From the NCBI GenBank assembly GCA_038821645.1, contig JAWBDT010000019.1, positions 1 through 30,301 of the forward strand: 30,301 nucleotides of DNA, in the 5' to 3' direction. The position numbers and the translations under genes are program-made. The DNA comes from Ignisphaera sp. (lineage in GTDB: Archaea > Thermoproteota > Thermoprotei_A > Sulfolobales > Ignisphaeraceae). Of this stretch, positions 21,905-30,301 are shown piece after piece; position 1 is the first letter of the stretch, and the number at the start of each line of letters is the position of its first letter. The notes beneath the pieces were generated by a model, which was given only the letters and a program-made list of their open reading frames with translations, made no database searches and had not been told where the DNA came from.

Positions 21905-24157
21905 TTATTTCTTACCAAGAGTTAATATAAACCATCCAACTATAGCACCTACTACCAATAGAACAGCCCAAACTACTGCAACAGTCGCCCAGTCTGCTTC
22001 TCTTTCCTTAATAGTTATAGTAGAGTACACAGTTCTCTCAACTTGTTGAACCACTGTAACCGTAACAGTTACTGTAGCTCCAGGGACTACTGGTGTTGTT
22101 GGAGTTGGTGTTGGTGTAGGAGTAGTAGGTGTAGGTGTTGTTGGAGTTGGTGTTGGTGTAGGAGTAGTAGGTGTAGGTGTTGTTGGAGTTGGTGTTGGTG
22201 TAGGAGTAGTAGGTGTAGGTGTTGGTTTACCTGATTCTATTCTGAAGCTTTTTCCTTCGTATATTGACCTTCTTAGATATTCGTTATACCTATTCATAGA
22301 TATGAGGGCTCCTCCTTCTTCTACTGATGCTAGCCACCATGGTTTTTCAATTGGTTTTCCTGTTGGTGTTAAGAAGAATAACACAGGTGCGCTACCCCAC
22401 CATGATGGTAGCCACCATGGTCTCTGTGCATTTGGCCATCCATCCCAGTACTTATCGTTGTATACCCAGAAGGATGGTGTATAGAATAATGGTATTGATG
22501 GTAGATCTTCAAATAGTATCTCTTGGATAGCATAAGCCAGTTCTTTTTCACGCTCTGGATCTATTAGCGATCTCATCATTTCTTCAAATAATGCATTTAA
22601 TCTATCGTTTGTATAGCCTATCCATCTAGCCATGTTGCCCCATGGAGAGTACAGAGCATTTCCATAAGAGTTTCTAATATGACCTACCTCATATGCTCCA
22701 GCACTCCAACACAATGTTGCATCGAATCTACCATTAGAGAAGCTTTCCCACCAAACTCTATAGTCAACAGCTTGTACTGCTACCGCTATACCTATGTCCT
22801 TTAACGCATCAGCTACAAGTGAAGCTATGGTGTTCTCGAGAACAGCTCCTGCAGAAACTAGTATCGTGAATCTCAAGGGTGTTCCATCTGGAAGCTCTCT
22901 AACACCATCTCTATCTCTATCAACGATTCCTGCAGCATCAAGTATGCTTCTTGCTTTAGCTAGATCTTGCTTAAGTAGACAGTCTGGTGTTCCCCAATAC
23001 TTTTGACACGCTTCACGATTCACATAATCTTTGTATACACCTTCAGCAACAAATCCAACAACAGGTGCCTGTTGTACTAATCCTAATAGACCATACTCAG
23101 TAATATCTTCCCACGGTATAGCCCAGGCAATAGCTCTTCTTACCTCGATTCTCTGGAAGATAGGTAGGTTGAGGTTGAGATATAGCCAGAAGCTGGCTCC
23201 AGGTATAAAGTATGGCTGTACCTCAGACCATGTCTTTATACCATGTCTTGTTTTAAGTTCTTCGACATTAGGTATGAATACTCCTGCTCCACCACCAATA
23301 ATACCTAAGGCATCTATATCGCCTCTGATTAAAGCTGATACCGCTACTGTAGTATCTTTATAGTATATGAACATTAGGTATTTGGCTGCAGGAAGACCAA
23401 AGATATCCTTACCCCACCAATTATCTATTCTCTCGTATATAACTTGAGTAGCATCTGCGAAATAAAGTTTGTAGGGTCCAGCAACAACCTGTCTAGCTGG
23501 GTCGTCATTTCTCCACTGAACTCTCATACCTTCGCCCATTTCATCAATAAGAGGTTTGAAGATATGTACCGGTACTGGTCTTATGAATAATATACAGCCT
23601 ATGGGACCTCCAAGCCAGTCCATAATGATTTCCTCTCTTGGTGGAGGCTCTTCACCTGGTGTTCTCGCTATATAGTACTTCAGTGTTTTGTCATCGATTA
23701 CCTCATAGTTGTATATACACCAATCACCCCATAGACCAGCACCTACTTGTCTACTCAACTGATAACCTTCTACTATGTCTCTACTGGTTATAGGTGTTCC
23801 ATCACTCCAACGAGCTTCATTCCTTATGTGTATGGTTATGGTAATTTCATCTCCATTGAACTCTATTCTATCTATAAGGAATAAGAGCCAATCCTGAGTT
23901 AATACATTCTGCATAGCTACAGATGGGTATAGAATATGCCAAGCACCCCACTCCATACCACCAGCACCTCCAGGAGCAAAGGGATTCCAGTTTAGTGTTG
24001 GTGCCCCTATATTTCCTATAATCAAAGTCTCTTCACGTTTTGGTGTTTGTGCATATATGCGTGTATTCGCTATAGCAAGGATTGTGCTTAATAGCAACAT
24101 TATGATAAAGAGATGTACTAAGACTATGTGTTTGGTTTTTAAGATCAAAGACTTCAC
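21905..24157 (-). CDS. ABC substrate-binding protein, OppA/DppA family 5 (likely oligosaccharide-binding)
   Basis: NWNPF, ARWSDGTPITSRD, GPYKL, VRRAIA, DLPSIPL; signal peptide, PT linker, C-terminal TM anchor. Likely start TTG 24148. Confidence 0.92.
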   Translation of the reverse strand: MKSLILKTKHIVLVHLFIIMLLLSTILAIANTRIYAQTPKREETLIIGNIGAPTLNWNPFAPGGAGGMEWGAWHILYPSVAMQNVLTQDWLLFLIDRIEFNGDEITITIHIRNEARWSDGTPITSRDIVEGYQLSRQVGAGLWGDWCIYNYEVIDDKTLKYYIARTPGEEPPPREEIIMDWLGGPIGCILFIRPVPVHIFKPLIDEMGEGMRVQWRNDDPARQVVAGPYKLYFADATQVIYERIDNWWGKDIFGLPAAKYLMFIYYKDTTVAVSALIRGDIDALGIIGGGAGVFIPNVEELKTRHGIKTWSEVQPYFIPGASFWLYLNLNLPIFQRIEVRRAIAWAIPWEDITEYGLLGLVQQAPVVGFVAEGVYKDYVNREACQKYWGTPDCLLKQDLAKARSILDAAGIVDRDRDGVRELPDGTPLRFTILVSAGAVLENTIASLVADALKDIGIAVAVQAVDYRVWWESFSNGRFDATLCWSAGAYEVGHIRNSYGNALYSPWGNMARWIGYTNDRLNALFEEMMRSLIDPEREKELAYAIQEILFEDLPSIPLFYTPSFWVYNDKYWDGWPNAQRPWWLPSWWGSAPVLFFLTPTGKPIEKPWWLASVEEGGALISMNRYNEYLRRSIYEGKSFRIESGKPTPTPTTPTPTPTPTTPTPTTPTPTPTPTTPTPTTPTPTPTPTTPVVPGATVTVTVTVVQQVERTVYSTITIKEREADWATVAVVWAVLLVVGAIVGWFILTLGKK
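22092..22224. repeat. Perfect 42-bp tandem repeat x3 plus 7 nt, encoding a Pro/Thr linker
   Basis: ggtgttgttggagttggtgttggtgtaggagtagtaggtgta at 22092, 22134 and 22176. Confidence 0.95.
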
Positions 24158-24267: not shown

Positions 24268-25731
24268 TTAATCCAGGTTCTGAAGCAATGTGTTAAGTCT
24301 ACTAATGATAGCATCTTTAAATACCTTCTTAAGTTCTTCTGTATCTATGCTATTGCTGCGGATAGCGTTACCAAGTTCGCGTGCTTTATCTAATGTGAAT
24401 ACTGTTTTACCACCTGTTAAAGGATCCACAAATTCTACAGGTTGACCCACCATATCGAGATACTTGTAGTATTCTTCGAGACCTATCTCTCCATTGATGT
24501 ATTTCTCTACAATACGGTTCACAACCATCTTTAGCAGTTCTCTAATATCTTGATCTGCTATAATTGTGTCTCCGTAAAGCTCTATAGCTGGTGCTGCTTC
24601 ACCTAGCATAAGTTCCATATTTACTGGAGGTGCATAAAGATTTGCTATAGCTGGATCTCTATAGATTATTCTGGGATTTGTATTGTTGTATCCTAGAACC
24701 GGTATGTAGAAGCTCCATCCAGTTCTATTTAGAAACATCATATCTTGTGCTTCTGTCAAAACCCATCTGATCAGTCTATACATACCTTCTAAACCATCAT
24801 CACTAGCTCTAGCAGCTATAGCTATAGGTGTAAACCAGAAACCTGTCTCATTTCTGGGGAACAATATCTGGAGTTTATCGGGAAACATAGAGTAAGCTGT
24901 ATATGCATCACCAAACTCTAAAACAGTAAGTAATGCTCTTCCAAAAGATACAGAGTCTCTTGCCTGACGAGTACCTACCTCAAGTCTCGAGATAGAACCA
25001 AAGATTACGGATATCAATGTCCAGCCTTTCTCCCAACCATATTTCGATAGAAGTGTATTGACTGTATTCATCATTGGTGCTCTATTAGTTACAGGATAGG
25101 CTGCTACAAGGTTTCCTCCTCTAGTTATTGTAGCAACATATTCAGGTTTAAGCAGATCTGTCCATGAGTTCGGGATCTCTAATCCATATTTGTTAGCGTA
25201 ATCAGTATTAACTAGCCATGTATATGGTACAAAGAACATTGCAATCCAACACAATCTACCATCATCTGTATATCCCTTGAGGAATTCCGGTACATCTCTA
25301 GCTAATGCGAGAATCTCTGGATCATCTATTGGATGTAGAGCTCCTTCTCTGCATAAAATAGTTATGTTGTATCTATTCTGTCCTATAAATCCATCTACAC
25401 TTCCATTAACACCTGCAGCTTTCCATATTTTTGGATCCTCAATCCTTACAAACGATATATTCGTTATGTTTAACCTCATTGATGCAGAAGGAAGTATCAC
25501 ACCTACTCTAGGCATACCACTTTCAGCAAAAAAGTATCTATTAAAATCATCACAACTCCATTGACTCCATGTAGTCATGATCTTTAGAGATACAGGCTTG
25601 AGTTGTTTAACTTCAGATTCTTCTTGCCGACCTGGTGATACAGTAATATTATATATAGCCATCAACGCTATACCTAAGACAACTATGATTGCTACAACCA
25701 TTAATACCATATTTTTCTTCATACCGATCAC
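24268..25731 (-). CDS. ABC substrate-binding protein (AfuA/thiamine-like family)
   Basis: N-terminal anchor; VNT......P.SW.DLLKP, YGWEKGW, PIAI motifs. Likely start ATG 25722. Confidence 0.75.
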   Translation of the reverse strand: MIGMKKNMVLMVVAIIVVLGIALMAIYNITVSPGRQEESEVKQLKPVSLKIMTTWSQWSCDDFNRYFFAESGMPRVGVILPSASMRLNITNISFVRIEDPKIWKAAGVNGSVDGFIGQNRYNITILCREGALHPIDDPEILALARDVPEFLKGYTDDGRLCWIAMFFVPYTWLVNTDYANKYGLEIPNSWTDLLKPEYVATITRGGNLVAAYPVTNRAPMMNTVNTLLSKYGWEKGWTLISVIFGSISRLEVGTRQARDSVSFGRALLTVLEFGDAYTAYSMFPDKLQILFPRNETGFWFTPIAIAARASDDGLEGMYRLIRWVLTEAQDMMFLNRTGWSFYIPVLGYNNTNPRIIYRDPAIANLYAPPVNMELMLGEAAPAIELYGDTIIADQDIRELLKMVVNRIVEKYINGEIGLEEYYKYLDMVGQPVEFVDPLTGGKTVFTLDKARELGNAIRSNSIDTEELKKVFKDAIISRLNTLLQNLD

Positions 25732-25911
25732 ACAACTGGAATTCTTTCTACAGAACTTATAAAATTTAGATAAAATTTAGAGAGACGGTGAATTGAACAA
25801 GGTTTTGTCACTCTCTATTGTAATTGGGACACAACGAATCAATGAATGTTACTTCTATACAATAATGAGGTATTTTACGAAATCTGGAACTATTTTAGTG
25901 CTTAGTATCCT

Positions 25912-26496
25912 TTAGCCAATGAGTCTAGAGACTATGTATGGTGTTATGAAGGATTCTATGAGGCTTGCAACTAAGAGTAATAGAACAATTATCAGGATTA
26001 TTTTTGGAAGAATCTTCAATGTTTTAGCTATATCTTCTCTATTCCTTTTAAATACATATTTCCAGAAGTCTATACCGAGTTTAGTTCCAAAAGCTGAAGC
26101 CATGAGTATTGCTGGAAGTTCGAAAACACCGTGGGGAGCTATAGCTACAAAGCCTAGGAGTGGTGAGCCTCCAGTCATAATAACCAACATTATCACCATA
26201 CCTACAATAAACCCATTGGCAAAAACTATTACACCAGGAATAAATACAAGTAGACCTGAGGCTATAGATATGGATGCAACTAGTAGATTCCTTCTGAATA
26301 TATAGAAAGCTGTATCAATACTATAGAATTCTATAGGGATATCTCCGTAAGCTTGCTTAATCATATCATTTACTGTTTGAAGCTCGTTTGGTGCAAACAT
26401 CACGAGATATAGTGTAGCAAGAGAGCCTAGAAACCAACTCACTACGAATATAATGACCATGACTAGGAAAAACATCTTCAGAGACACACCATTCAC
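25912..26496 (-). CDS. SpoIIM/DUF95-family membrane protein
   Basis: IF..N, NG..VG, PHGVFELPA, A.LIESFITP. Confidence 0.88.
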   Translation of the reverse strand: MNGVSLKMFFLVMVIIFVVSWFLGSLATLYLVMFAPNELQTVNDMIKQAYGDIPIEFYSIDTAFYIFRRNLLVASISIASGLLVFIPGVIVFANGFIVGMVIMLVIMTGGSPLLGFVAIAPHGVFELPAILMASAFGTKLGIDFWKYVFKRNREDIAKTLKILPKIILIIVLLLLVASLIESFITPYIVSRLIG

Positions 26497-26676: not shown

Positions 26677-27447
26677 CTAATAATCATATATAGATCTACA
26701 TACAGATACCGTTCCTGCACCATCTTCAGCTGGAGTCTTTATTCTCTGACCTATAACATGTAGATCTCTTGACCTTAGTATCTCTCTCAAGACTTCTTTC
26801 CCCTGCATTTTCTCTGATCTCAAACAGTTTATCGGTATCTTGAACGCTATATCCAGTACTTCTCTATCTAGGAGCAGAGCTACAGCTTTTACATCTATAC
26901 ACTTTGCTATCTCTAGCTCTGGGTATCTACCATAAGCTAGTCTGTTAATGGTTTCCTCAAGCTCTTTTTCAACAAGTTTTAATAGAAAGCTATAGCCAGC
27001 AAAAACCTCATCTCCACCACTTCCTGTATAGATACATCTACATCCATCTTTTTTAGCTTCTCTAAGTACTGAATAGAAAACTATATCGTTTCTGATCTCT
27101 ATACATCCACCATCTCTATGCGAGTCAATTCTATCCCTACCTATACACCCAATAACACCACTCTTTAGATTATCGATATCTCCTTGATCTATATAAATGT
27201 ACTTAACATCTATATTGAAGAACTTAGCTATATGATTCACATATACAAGATCTTTCGGAAGACCTTGTCTATATACAGCTGTATAGCCTCTAGGCTTATA
27301 GCCAGCCGATACGCTTGCCAAAAGCACTAGCGATGTATCTATCCCACCGCTTAAAGCAATACAATCACATCTATACTCCTCTACAGATTCCACTAGTACA
27401 TTAAACAGCTTCTCTGCGTATATATTGCAGGGCATTGGGATCCTCAT
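26677..27447 (-). CDS. Asparagine synthetase C-terminal-like ATP pyrophosphatase (no glutaminase domain)
   Basis: LSGGIDTS, TGSGGDEVFAGY, GKEVLR, R.KTP..G. Confidence 0.82.
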   Translation of the reverse strand: MRIPMPCNIYAEKLFNVLVESVEEYRCDCIALSGGIDTSLVLLASVSAGYKPRGYTAVYRQGLPKDLVYVNHIAKFFNIDVKYIYIDQGDIDNLKSGVIGCIGRDRIDSHRDGGCIEIRNDIVFYSVLREAKKDGCRCIYTGSGGDEVFAGYSFLLKLVEKELEETINRLAYGRYPELEIAKCIDVKAVALLLDREVLDIAFKIPINCLRSEKMQGKEVLREILRSRDLHVIGQRIKTPAEDGAGTVSVCRSIYDY

Positions 27448-28076
27448 TAGATCAACCTCAAGATAATGTAGTTGCCATAGCTTTCAGACCCTATAGTCTT
27501 GTATCCGAGGATAGATCTGTGAAGTGGTCCTGATAAAACTACTGTATGGTATTCGCCTCTCTCTCCTAGAGGATCTATACCGATTTTTAGCGCTTTTTCT
27601 ACAAATAGATCGACATTACCTCTACCTAGTTCTACACCAAGCCATTCACCTAAATTCTCTATACATCCTATTATGAGTGGCTTCACACCATCATAGAGCT
27701 CTCTATAGAGAAGGTCGAGTGGATCCAAACCCCATAGAGGTTCAACAAGTGTTGCTCCTACTTCTCTAACGAGTTTCTCCATATAGTTTAGATGCTCATC
27801 GATATACACATCTCCAGCAACTACTACATCTACCTGGAGCTTCTTAAGCAGATCAACTGTCTCTATAAATTCTCTACCTCTAGTAAGCTTTACCACAGTA
27901 ACCGGTATTTCGGCTAAAAGAAGTGTCTCAATAGATTTACCTATGTTAAGTAGATGAGGGCTTGGTCTTGGAAACTCGTACACAAGTACTATACCTAGAT
28001 CCACTTTTCTACCGTATCGATAAACAGCGTAGTAAGAATCCTTACCTCCAGATAGAAAAGCTACATACATATTCAC
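27447..28076 (-). CDS. DUF71/Dph6 (diphthine-ammonia ligase)-like ATP-binding protein
   Basis: SGGKDS, GD...EH, EPLW, DP.GE.GEYHTVV..GP. Confidence 0.85.
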   Translation of the reverse strand: MNMYVAFLSGGKDSYYAVYRYGRKVDLGIVLVYEFPRPSPHLLNIGKSIETLLLAEIPVTVVKLTRGREFIETVDLLKKLQVDVVVAGDVYIDEHLNYMEKLVREVGATLVEPLWGLDPLDLLYRELYDGVKPLIIGCIENLGEWLGVELGRGNVDLFVEKALKIGIDPLGERGEYHTVVLSGPLHRSILGYKTIGSESYGNYIILRLI

Positions 28077-28768
28077 ACACCAAGCTTTTGGAGAAGCTTT
28101 AAGGGATAGGTTACGTAGAGATTCTTAAGGTATGTCTTGTGGTATGTTGTTCTAGGAGGAAGAGTTTCACCTCTTGTAGCAATTCTATAGATATCTTTTG
28201 GCTCTAGTTTTGGCATCAATACGCATATATCTGAAGAAGAACACCTATCTATATCTATAGGAACCTTAGCCATATCGAGTAACGCGTTTGGAGAACCCAG
28301 TTCTTTAAACGCTAAATAAACATCAATTCTATCAATATTCAAAACCACCACTGTACCACCCACCTTAACCTTCATTTCATCGCTACCTCTCTTAGCCATA
28401 GACTCTAACTCTTCTACAGCCTTTACCACAGACCTATGGTCTATCAATCTACTTGACCCGATATACATCCATCCACCAACATCATCTACATCTAAACCGT
28501 AGTCAGCTATATAAGCTGGAACCACTTTTACACCAAGAGACTTTAGAGCATTAAGTCTGTGGTGACCATCGATAACTATGAGCCTGTTCTTTTCAACAAT
28601 AATAGGCTTCCTTAAAGCTCCATCAATACCTATCGAGTCTAGTACTCTAGAGCTATGTATGATATCGGTATCTTCGTGAGGAACAACATCATTTATGTAG
28701 AGTAGAACTGGATTAGCGAGATGATTATTACATGGATTCTCTCGAACTCTGCACCTCTTTATCGGCAT
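28073..28768 (-). CDS. ParB/Srx-fold protein resembling free serine kinase SerK
   Basis: VPHE, KPII, IDGHHR, DY......V..W, C-terminal GE.LPPRTTYH. Confidence 0.75.
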   Translation of the reverse strand: MPIKRCRVRENPCNNHLANPVLLYINDVVPHEDTDIIHSSRVLDSIGIDGALRKPIIVEKNRLIVIDGHHRLNALKSLGVKVVPAYIADYGLDVDDVGGWMYIGSSRLIDHRSVVKAVEELESMAKRGSDEMKVKVGGTVVVLNIDRIDVYLAFKELGSPNALLDMAKVPIDIDRCSSSDICVLMPKLEPKDIYRIATRGETLPPRTTYHKTYLKNLYVTYPLKLLQKLGV

Positions 28769-28803
28769 TTACGCTACCTCAGAACTGTTAACACGATCTA
28801 CCA

Positions 28804-29778
28804 CTATGTATTAGCTAAGTATATAAGGTGATGTATAGGTAGCACCAGAAGATGTAGAAAAACTACGTAGACTATAGATACATAGATAGAGAGTTCTACA
28901 GCTCTTAGTACATCGCTGTGTGTTGGTAAATGGAATTCTCTACCTATAGTATAGCTCTCTATCTTCTCAAGCTTAACACCTAAACATCCAGCTGTAGCCG
29001 CCATAGGGTTTCCAGCATTTATGCTTTCTGTAAATTTTCTATCCCTTAAATATATATACCAACCTCTTCGAATAGAACCACCAACAGTAGAGCATAAAGC
29101 TAGCGTAATTAGCGCGGTTAATCTTGCTGGAACAAAATTGAGGATTGTATCAACTTTTGCTGAAAACCATCCTATATCCTTAAACATAGGCTCTCTGTAA
29201 CCTAGTGCAGAATCCATTGTATTCGCTAACCTCTGGATTAGTGCTCCTATAGAGCCTAGAAAGAGATAGAAGAATAGTGGTGATGTAAATCCATCTACAA
29301 GACTTTCAAACAGAGACTCTATAGCGGCTGACGCTATGTGACCTTCATAAAGATTTTCAACACTCCTTCTAACAATATTTGAGATAGTTTTTCGAGCATG
29401 CACTATATCTCTATTCTTGAGATGTAGATAAACAGCTTTAACATAGTCTAGAAGCAGTTTTAGTGATAGTGAGACCTTCAAGAGGTATATAGAGAATAGT
29501 ATCCAGAGAACTCTATGTATAGAGTTAACCACATAGAGAACAAACATATATAGAGCTGTATGGATAAAGACTGTGGCAATCCATAGAGCTACACCCATCA
29601 ACCTGTTCTTCGGAAGTTTTTTGTAGAGAGTTATAGCAAACGTATAGGCTGTGTGTACGGGATGTATCTTGTACATTATTCCGCTGTGATATGGGTAGAG
29701 GAAATCCAGTATAAGAGCGCCTAAGAGGATTGAAGAGAACTCCACTATATCTCTAGGGAGAAGCCAGTCTAGATCCAT
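28804..29778 (-). CDS. cbiB: Adenosylcobinamide-phosphate synthase CbiB
   Basis: HPV, IVRR, AAIESLFESLVDG..SPLF, NTMDSALGY, G.FSAK.D.ILNFVPARL, S.NAG.PMA, LEK..Y. Start placed at ATG 29778 after GGTG. Confidence 0.92.
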   Translation of the reverse strand: MDLDWLLPRDIVEFSSILLGALILDFLYPYHSGIMYKIHPVHTAYTFAITLYKKLPKNRLMGVALWIATVFIHTALYMFVLYVVNSIHRVLWILFSIYLLKVSLSLKLLLDYVKAVYLHLKNRDIVHARKTISNIVRRSVENLYEGHIASAAIESLFESLVDGFTSPLFFYLFLGSIGALIQRLANTMDSALGYREPMFKDIGWFSAKVDTILNFVPARLTALITLALCSTVGGSIRRGWYIYLRDRKFTESINAGNPMAATAGCLGVKLEKIESYTIGREFHLPTHSDVLRAVELSIYVSIVYVVFLHLLVLPIHHLIYLANT

Positions 29779-30301
29779 AGATTCGCACCTACAGCATGTA
29801 TAGCCATAACCATTAGATAACATAGCTCGGATACAAAGCCCAGGACATCGCCATTAACGAAACCCAGAACCCTACTGGATAGCAGATGGGTAGATAGTAC
29901 GGCAATAGTGAAACCCACAGCCAGCAACATGGTTAATAATGGAGCTATCATGGGGTGTACAGAGAACATAAGGACTGTAGTTAAAGCAACTGCTATAGCT
30001 ATACCGAGAAGCACATCTATGTCTCTGACACTATGCTTAAACAACCTACCTATACCTTCTGGAGGTTCTCTACCTAGATAAGATAGCGTAGGCATGGAAA
30101 CTATAGACCACACTTCAGCAGAAATAATCAGAACTATCGATACCTCTAGCCTTGTCTTGATCAAGATGCTCAGTACCGATGAATATAGTCCTAACACTAA
30201 TAGCACGAATATCGCTATTGCGTAAGAACCTCTATACCTATCTTTAACAACTCTATACGCATCTACACCAAATCTATATGCCAAGACAGCTTCTGAGAAA
30301 T
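29769..30301 (-). CDS. cobS: Adenosylcobinamide-GDP ribazoletransferase CobS (5' end outside window)
   Basis: KD.Y.GSYA, G.G..F, G.VNGDVLG...E; frame stays open to the window edge. Confidence 0.88.
   Translation of the reverse strand, partial: FSEAVLAYRFGVDAYRVVKDRYRGSYAIAIFVLLVLGLYSSVLSILIKTRLEVSIVLIISAEVWSIVSMPTLSYLGREPPEGIGRLFKHSVRDIDVLLGIAIAVALTTVLMFSVHPMIAPLLTMLLAVGFTIAVLSTHLLSSRVLGFVNGDVLGFVSELCYLMVMAIHAVGANLWI

Follow-up and report, generated by a model that had tools for sequence, protein, structure and literature searches.

The locus

The window analysed here is a 30,301-nucleotide stretch of DNA from Ignisphaera sp. that makes up the whole of one contig (C19) of its source genome, G000, which measures 1.57 Mb, is spread over 31 contigs and is 97.8% complete; the named proteins closest to its own come from Ignisphaera sp. 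MAGs. One end of the window holds, on the reverse strand, the last genes of a cobamide (cob) operon, and the subject of this work is a gene of that operon coding for a 231-aa protein related to the serine kinases SerK and SbnI (Table 1). As described in the initial annotation of this DNA, the gene comes 35 nt after cbiB (spacer 28769-28803) and overlaps the next gene, which codes for a PP-loop protein, by 4 nt (28073-28076). Judged by their sequences, the identities of cbiB and cobS are secure, and the real start of cbiB may be an internal methionine codon around 29778. The CobS fragment, cut by the end of the contig, aligns with residues 89-271 of the 271-aa CobS of the closest relative, G058. 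The product of the PP-loop gene reached 250.3 bits with the NCBIfam model NF052347 (cut-off 250) and 93.3 bits with Pfam Diphthami_syn_2.

Table 1. Features of the cob operon end in the window
Feature	Position	Strand	Description
Putative kinase of the SerK/SbnI family, cob-linked 'long' clade	28073..28768	-	231-aa open reading frame (ORF); profile, structure, synteny
Catalytic-type residues of the putative kinase	within 28073..28768	-	E32, D67, H69, H70, R71, W100, R206, T208, H210
cbiB, adenosylcobinamide-phosphate synthase	28804..29823	-	Pfam CobD_Cbib 252.6 bits; NCBIfam NF002281 319.4 bits (cut-off 273)
cobS, cobamide synthase, 3' part only	29769..30301	-	Pfam CobS 56 bits; gene truncated at contig end
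PP-loop ATP pyrophosphatase, TTX_0299 family (Dph6 paralogue)	27447..28076	-	209 aa; GTG start; SGGKDS motif
AsnS-like PP-loop protein without glutaminase domain	26677..27447	-	256 aa; SGGIDTS motif; Pfam Asn_synthase 62.9 bits, residues 30-161

Sequence and fold of the 231-residue protein

No Pfam family, ParBc included, was matched by the 231-aa protein at E<=0.01. Among NCBIfam models, those for SerK and SbnI recognised it at 41.8 bits (cut-off 380) and 39.5 bits (cut-off 350), respectively. The best sequence match in the PDB was to SbnI (5ujd, residues 25-227, E 1e-8), followed by the N-terminal domain of SerK from Thermococcus kodakarensis (Tk-SerK, 5x0b). The protein thus belongs to the SerK/SbnI family as a distant member with a complete structure and is the equivalog of neither enzyme.

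The SerK-like motifs reported in the initial annotation (PHE, DGHHR, a tryptophan and PRTTYH) were found at P30-H31-E32, D67-G68-H69-H70-R71, W100 and P205-R206-T207-T208-Y209-H210. In an alignment made with a profile of 11 homologues, all of them fall on counterparts in 5x0b, namely E32 on E30, D67-R71 on D69-R73, W100 on W102 and P205-RTTYH-210 on P220-KTTRH-225; the form PKTT.H given there for SerK is thus correct. E30 of Tk-SerK, the glutamate of the PHE motif that is mutated in PDB entries 5x0e/g/j/k, is presumably the catalytic base. Across 33 aligned family members, the residues E32, P55, D67, G68, H70, R71, P84, Y90 and H210 are invariant. The C-terminal motif reads LPPR[TSM]T[YCL]H in the cob-linked clade to which the window protein belongs, PPK[TS][TS][RIK]H in most other aligned members and HKATRH in three canonical-like SerK rows. 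With respect to SerK, the clade has exchanged K221 for R and R224 for Y, C or L, which correspond to R206 and Y209 in the window protein.

An AlphaFold2 model built on a 33-sequence alignment had a predicted local distance difference test score (pLDDT) of 92.2 and a predicted template modelling score (pTM) of 0.86, disorder being restricted to residues 1-15. Foldseek comparison of this model with the PDB gave nine matches at E<=0.001, all to SerK (5x0*, 1vk1) or SbnI, with template modelling (TM) scores of 0.64-0.71. These alignments extend over approximately 224-249 columns, so that in the predicted structure both domains are covered, the ParB/Srx-like N-domain as well as the family-specific C-domain. 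ParB, Noc and sulfiredoxin came next with TM scores of at most 0.28, and the ParB and Noc structures that superposed well did so over about 75-85 columns of the N-domain with a root-mean-square deviation of 2.2-2.5. A ParB-type CTPase DNA clamp was considered and rejected, since the helix-turn-helix (HTH) DNA-binding domain and the C-terminal dimerisation domain of such clamps are not present, nor any other DNA-binding domain, and the likeness of the protein to ParB is confined to the N-domain.

Conservation of the operon and linkage with cob genes

Homologues of the putative kinase at 38-82% identity hold the same operon slot in other genomes, and the arrangement with cob genes is therefore beyond what chance would produce. 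In the closest relative, G058, the kinase is 82% identical and the locus matches the window gene for gene from a solute-binding protein gene to cobS, continuing into cobD and cobY; the operon runs there from cobY to the AsnS-like gene, and cobT and cbiS are found elsewhere. The full order cobT-cbiS(cbiZ+cobZ)-cobY-cobD-cobS-cbiB-kinase-PP-loop-AsnS-like was observed unbroken and on a single strand in two genomes (G104 and G093). The unit formed by the kinase, PP-loop and AsnS-like genes is inverted in G050 and moved in G022, and linkage to cob genes is retained in both. A scan of one genome per species gave 28 loci, nine of which (L004-L012) contain full-length relatives at 40-48% identity. 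When the neighbours from the window were searched at these nine loci by tblastn, CbiB and CobS were detected at eight, the PP-loop protein at seven and the AsnS-like protein at five, two of the loci being cut by contig ends.

The linkage is specific to one clade of the family. In a sample of 151 genomes of the class, 138 contain a SerK-family match, mostly without cob linkage. Flanking regions were compared for 56 distinct family members, 13 of which score at least 221 bits against a hidden Markov model of the clade. cbiB lies within 15 kb of every one of these 13 genes, which come from several families, and within 3.6 kb of 12 of them. Among the remaining 43 members, a single one, a short-type gene in G064, has cob genes in the 5-6 kb fetched on each side, and a relative in G141 is located 12 kb from cbiB by coordinates.

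In a quick maximum-likelihood tree, the 13 clade members form a single branch (SH-aLRT 85). The canonical-like SerK proteins of Desulfurococcaceae, which align with the whole of the SerK model at 92-116 bits, occupy the opposite half of the tree. The cob label requires two changes on this tree, compared with a mean of 12.8 when labels were shuffled, and none of 500 shuffles was as low. The sisters of the clade are a Methanodesulfokora gene and a gene of G120, and a wider clade (SH-aLRT 95) adds G034, G111, G141 and G126. The initial annotation had proposed comparing the protein with SerK in a phylogeny and looking for co-localisation of its clade with cob genes, and both the separate branch and the co-localisation were obtained.

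CbiB was detected in all eight sample genomes that have a clade member or the G120 sister. Within the genus, a member of the family, long or short, is present in each of the eight CbiB-positive genomes, including G000, while the sole CbiB-negative genome (93% complete) has none, yet retains a CysK/M-like gene.

The nearest outgroup gene of the clade, from Candidatus Methanodesulfokora washburnensis (L009:515-6609), has as its neighbours genes for corrinoid-dependent methyl transfer (MtaA, RamA and MtaB) in place of cob biosynthesis genes.

Cobamide pathway genes of the source genome

G000 encodes a de novo anaerobic corrin cluster on contig C22, with five tetrapyrrole-methylase genes (cbiE/F/H/L/cobA-type), a cbiT-like methyltransferase gene, cbiD, cbiC, cbiG, a cbiM-type cobalt uptake gene and tetrapyrrole precursor genes. 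CbiS and CobT are encoded on C24. A genome-wide search of G000 with the CobD model returned only HisC, inside the his operon. True absence of cobD from this genome was nevertheless rejected: C19 stops at residue 89 of CobS and C23 starts at residue 151 of CobY, followed by the three genes that come after cobY in G058, so that the apparent absence is accounted for by an assembly gap between the two contigs. The search for cobD suggested in the initial annotation thus led to a homologue in the same operon of relatives, with the G000 copy falling in the gap. The latter is estimated at about 1.4 kb (window 30301 / C23:1-453, from G058 synteny) and is expected to contain the missing 5' portion of cobS, the whole of cobD and the 3' end of cobY.

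CobD requires an O-phospho-amino acid. The cobD product of G058 scores 240.7 bits with TIGR01140 versus 200.8 bits with the hisC model, and the operon CobD homologues of the relatives are 347-374 aa long and carry no extra domain. As for the source of the phospho-amino acid, the L-threonine kinases named in the relevant passages of PMC6249242 and PMC7242693 are PduX and BluE, which feed CobD upstream of CbiB. Six proteins of the GHMP family are encoded in G000, and none of them matched a PduX or BluE family in NCBIfam, where BluE could not be sought through a family model; they came closest to a galactokinase-like protein, homoserine kinase, shikimate kinase, mevalonate kinase, pantoate kinase and beta-RFAP synthase. 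The activity in question, EC 2.7.1.177, is among the steps that a section of PMC8305020 lists as still unfilled in the pathway of haloarchaea. Regarding serine, possible traces of the phosphorylated pathway in G000 are three matches resembling phosphoglycerate dehydrogenase (273-299 bits) and one weak SerB-like match, all below cut-off.

Other members of the family

The gene at 28073-28768 is the only SerK-family gene in G000. In four other genomes (G050, G054, G104 and G093), paralogues coexist with the cob-linked gene. That of G050 is a canonical-like SerK with a match of 91.7 bits that spans the entire SerK model, and that of G054 is a 137-aa mini form situated 229 bp upstream of a CysK/M-like gene (L101:4986-5399). 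Mini forms of about 135 aa and short forms of about 180 aa both lack the middle domain and keep the motifs PHE, DGHHR and PPKT[ST][RK]H; the gene at L104:5896-6300 in G120 is among these smaller members.

Several members are found beside genes for pyridoxal phosphate (PLP) enzymes. For instance, a TrpB-like enzyme adjoins a family member in G120 and in G141, and the short member of G102 (L099:5834-6367) has a CysK/M-like enzyme directly upstream. TrpB-like enzymes use O-phosphoserine. The pairing of the cob-linked clade with CobD fits this family theme of PLP-enzyme neighbours that act on O-phospho-amino acids. The short member of G064 (L057:13630-14172) lies next to a BtuF-like gene and adjoins cobT.

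A mini-SerK domain was also observed fused to a GalU-like sugar-1-phosphate nucleotidyltransferase in a protein of 422 aa (P0167), which suggests that some family members phosphorylate hydroxyls of compounds other than amino acids. Among the best 150 of 2668 profile matches, three exceed 330 aa (379-649 aa) and align solely with the ParB-like region at the N-terminus of the profile, two of them at their own N-terminus and one at its own C-terminal end. A search for longer homologues of the window protein gave none, which is weak evidence. Nor was a CobY fusion found in the sample of 151 genomes: the long CobY-like frames of four fetched regions contain no DGxHR motif and gave no match with the hidden Markov models.

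Proposed function and alternatives

The 231-aa protein is very probably a kinase dedicated to cobamide assembly. The best candidate for its role is that of an L-threonine kinase feeding CobD and thereby supplying the phospho-amino acid of the cobamide linker, a reading to which a probability of roughly 45% is given. According to this proposal, a free-amino-acid O-kinase of the SerK/SbnI fold would have been recruited into cobamide assembly, where it would convert L-threonine into L-threonine-O-3-phosphate with ATP or another nucleotide as donor. The CobD of the operon would then turn threonine phosphate into (R)-1-amino-2-propanol phosphate, which CbiB would join to adenosylcobyric acid, and CobY, CobT, CobS and the CobZ part of CbiS would finish the nucleotide loop. 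The protein would in this way be a non-homologous analogue of PduX and BluE. The initial annotation had proposed either a replacement for PduX or a supplier of phosphoserine; linkage to cob genes, the separate clade and the lack of a PduX-like GHMP kinase in G000 agree with that proposal, but threonine, serine and adenosylcobinamide are all possible substrates. It had also named the case that would speak against it, a sole housekeeping SerK in a genome that has pduX as well: the gene is indeed the only one of its family in G000, but no pduX was found there.

Several observations weigh against this proposal. According to parts of PMC5120207, Tk-SerK refuses threonine and homoserine. The SerK family is represented by a single gene in G000 and in G058, yet a CysK/M-like enzyme is retained in these genomes or in their genus (the G000 gene at 80% identity), and the kinase may thus have to make phosphoserine too. 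The TrpB-like neighbours of the sister lineages suggest a serine-kinase ancestry. In G088, it is a short member of about 180 aa (L056:1-423, its ORF meeting the contig end) that comes directly after cbiB, and it carries PPKTSKH, a C-terminal motif of the serine-kinase-like type PPKT[ST][RK]H; the short gene of G064, with a motif of the same type, is also located beside the operon. The CobD homologue of G058, with its 240.7 bits, stays under the equivalog cut-off of 290.55, and its own substrate is therefore not fixed. No fusion with CobD was found among the best 150 of the 2668 profile matches. Finally, four CbiB-positive genomes (G010, G068, G142 and G039) have no SerK-family match, and in family f5 no family member was seen near cbiB in any of the 34 genomes (34/34), wherever both share a contig.

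A first alternative is that the protein is an L-serine kinase, the CobD homologue of the operon turning O-phosphoserine into ethanolamine phosphate for a nor-type linker, and the same phosphoserine may also feed cysteine or tryptophan synthesis. All characterised members of the family, SerK and SbnI, phosphorylate serine; TrpB-like and CysK/M-like PLP enzymes adjoin the sister and short relatives; G000 has a lone family gene; and the score of the CobD homologue leaves room for another substrate. A dedicated operon kinase would on the other hand be needless where the phosphorylated serine pathway already yields phosphoserine, G050 and G054 have paralogues alongside the cob-linked gene, and the C-terminal motif departs from PPKTTRH precisely at R206 and Y209. 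To our knowledge, norcobamides are known only from Sulfurospirillum, and a serine kinase of this sort is considered unlikely. Slightly less likely again is an adenosylcobinamide kinase that would act on salvaged cobinamide, phosphorylating its aminopropanol hydroxyl before guanylylation by CobY, the pair forming an archaeal equivalent of CobU/CobP. The target hydroxyl does resemble the threonine side chain, and the P0167 fusion shows that a kinase-plus-nucleotidyltransferase logic exists in the family. However, the operon already contains the archaeal salvage route in the CbiZ domain of CbiS, the gene adjoins cbiB and not cobY, the long type appears from its model to have a closed two-domain architecture suited to a small substrate, and the supply of threonine phosphate to CobD would be left unexplained.

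The lone family gene of G000 could also encode a housekeeping serine kinase, or a kinase of alpha-ribazole or of free aminopropanol, whose association with the cob operon is incidental, and the presence of the family in 138 of the 151 class genomes, for the most part away from cob genes, would be in line with such a role. This is rendered improbable by the linkage of all 13 clade members over several families, which persists even where the unit is inverted (G050) or moved (G022), as well as by the fact that every clade genome is CbiB-positive and that the CbiB-negative congener has no family member at all. Last, the protein may be imagined as a regulator of the cob operon without catalytic activity, or as a switch that binds nucleotides, by analogy with regulation by SbnI or with ParB-type switches, as SbnI is called a bifunctional transcriptional regulator in NCBIfam and CTP binding is reported for a SerK-like archaeal protein in a portion of PMC12704722. 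The catalytic-type residues are invariant, an HTH or DNA-binding domain is missing and ParB structures match the N-domain only, at TM scores no higher than 0.28, which makes a purely regulatory role very improbable.

Relation to known systems

The closest structural counterparts of the window protein are the SerK proteins of T. kodakarensis (TK0378; 5x0b, 5x0e) and Pyrococcus furiosus (1vk1), which have the same two-domain fold (TM 0.64-0.71) and the aligned elements E30, DGHHR, W102 and P-x-T-T-x-H. Sequence identity is only about 19-20%, and R206 and Y209 stand where SerK has K221 and R224. The gene context differs too: the window gene is part of a cobamide operon, whereas serK of T. kodakarensis is in no operon and serK genes of Desulfurococcales are near dehydrogenase and aminotransferase genes, according to the part of PMC5120207 that deals with them. 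SbnI of staphylococci (5ujd, 6nr6, 5uje), an O-phospho-L-serine synthase and regulator, gave the best sequence match over the full length and is likewise encoded in a biosynthetic operon. It supplies a phospho-amino acid to a PLP enzyme, but it comes from bacteria, acts in the synthesis of a siderophore and is also a regulator.

With PduX and BluE (EC 2.7.1.177), the window protein would share the reaction and the position in the pathway, and it does share the association of its gene with cobD and cbiB. PduX is a GHMP kinase, and its fold is unrelated to the ParB/Srx-SerK fold of the window protein, so that the proposed likeness is one of function by analogy and not of family membership. In archaea, another solution for threonine phosphate is said to have been described by Tavares et al. 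in 2018, who reportedly identified MM2060 of Methanosarcina mazei as a CobD with a fused kinase domain. Here, the candidate is a separate gene of the SerK fold, and CobD is devoid of any extra domain. CobU/CobP, the adenosylcobinamide kinase and guanylyltransferase, is also a late-pathway kinase, but unlike the window protein it is bifunctional and has a P-loop fold. Archaea use CobY and CbiZ in its place, and both are encoded in this operon.

The literature search, for which most subscription papers and supplements were outside the scope, found no paper linking SerK-like or TTX_0299/AsnS-like proteins to cobamides. Where archaea obtain threonine phosphate for B12 synthesis is an acknowledged gap (see EC 2.7.1.177 in PMC8305020). 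If the L-threonine kinase proposal is right, a SerK-fold threonine kinase would represent another independent invention of the threonine-phosphate step, would widen the substrate range of ParB/Srx-fold kinases and would provide a marker for annotating B12 producers among hot-spring archaea.

The PP-loop pair and its possible role in corrin amidation

The two PP-loop proteins encoded after the kinase may matter more than the kinase itself. A search of G000 revealed neither CbiA nor CbiP, despite the de novo corrin pathway of this genome. In the sample of 151 genomes, CbiB was found in 92, CbiP in 45, CbiA in 42 and the TTX_0299 PP-loop family in 39. Among the 92 CbiB-positive genomes, CbiP occurs alone in 42 and TTX_0299 alone in 36, one genome has both and 13 have neither. 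The 59 CbiB-negative genomes comprise two with CbiP, two with TTX_0299 and 55 with neither. As the genomes are related and not independent, the statistical weight of these counts is overstated. CbiA is confined to three families (f5, f12 and f16), and TTX_0299 occurs in none of them. The AsnS-like gene adjoins the TTX_0299 gene or cbiB in most cases, and both PP-loop proteins retain the SGGxD[ST] motif. The genomes also carry a separate TTX_0299 paralogue of lower score, presumably Dph6 itself. Relatives of the pair were recorded at loci L049-L054 and L057.

Because the distribution of the pair is complementary to that of CbiP, and CbiA and CbiP are absent, the TTX_0299 and AsnS-like proteins are candidates for ammonia-dependent corrin amidases replacing CbiA and CbiP. 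Two missing amidotransferases and two putative carboxylate-adenylating enzymes in the same operon constitute a testable case for non-orthologous replacement. Alternatively, the pair may serve as an ATP-using partner of CbiB in amide-bond formation. In a broader and rather doubtful proposal, Desulfurococcales-type archaea would run a different late cobamide module, in which the SerK-fold kinase at the end of the operon replaces PduX and the PP-loop pair replaces CbiA plus CbiP. The pair would then amidate six corrin carboxylates with ammonia via adenylated intermediates, and not by glutamine-dependent phosphorylation chemistry. If the pair does amidate the corrin, predictions of cobamide synthesis that require CbiA and CbiP miss these lineages, that is, 36 CbiB-positive genomes of the 151 sampled.

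Other genes of the window and provenance

Beyond the operon, positions 24268-26496 (reverse strand) encode a membrane protein of the SpoIIM family and a solute-binding protein of 487 aa (SBP_bac_6 plus an AF0941-like segment), an arrangement that is kept in G058 only. Further on, a 750-aa ORF at 21905-24157 (reverse strand) codes for a substrate-binding-protein-like product in which a long Pro/Thr linker (TPTPTPTT...) leads to a hydrophobic helix at the C-terminus. The product resembles archaeal binding proteins that are anchored at the surface, the sole support being 26% identity to an Opp-type protein of G058. No RNA family was found in a scan of the window with Rfam. Finally, this DNA was detected in 20 sequencing runs, all of them of DNA, of which 18 are labelled as hot-spring metagenomes.

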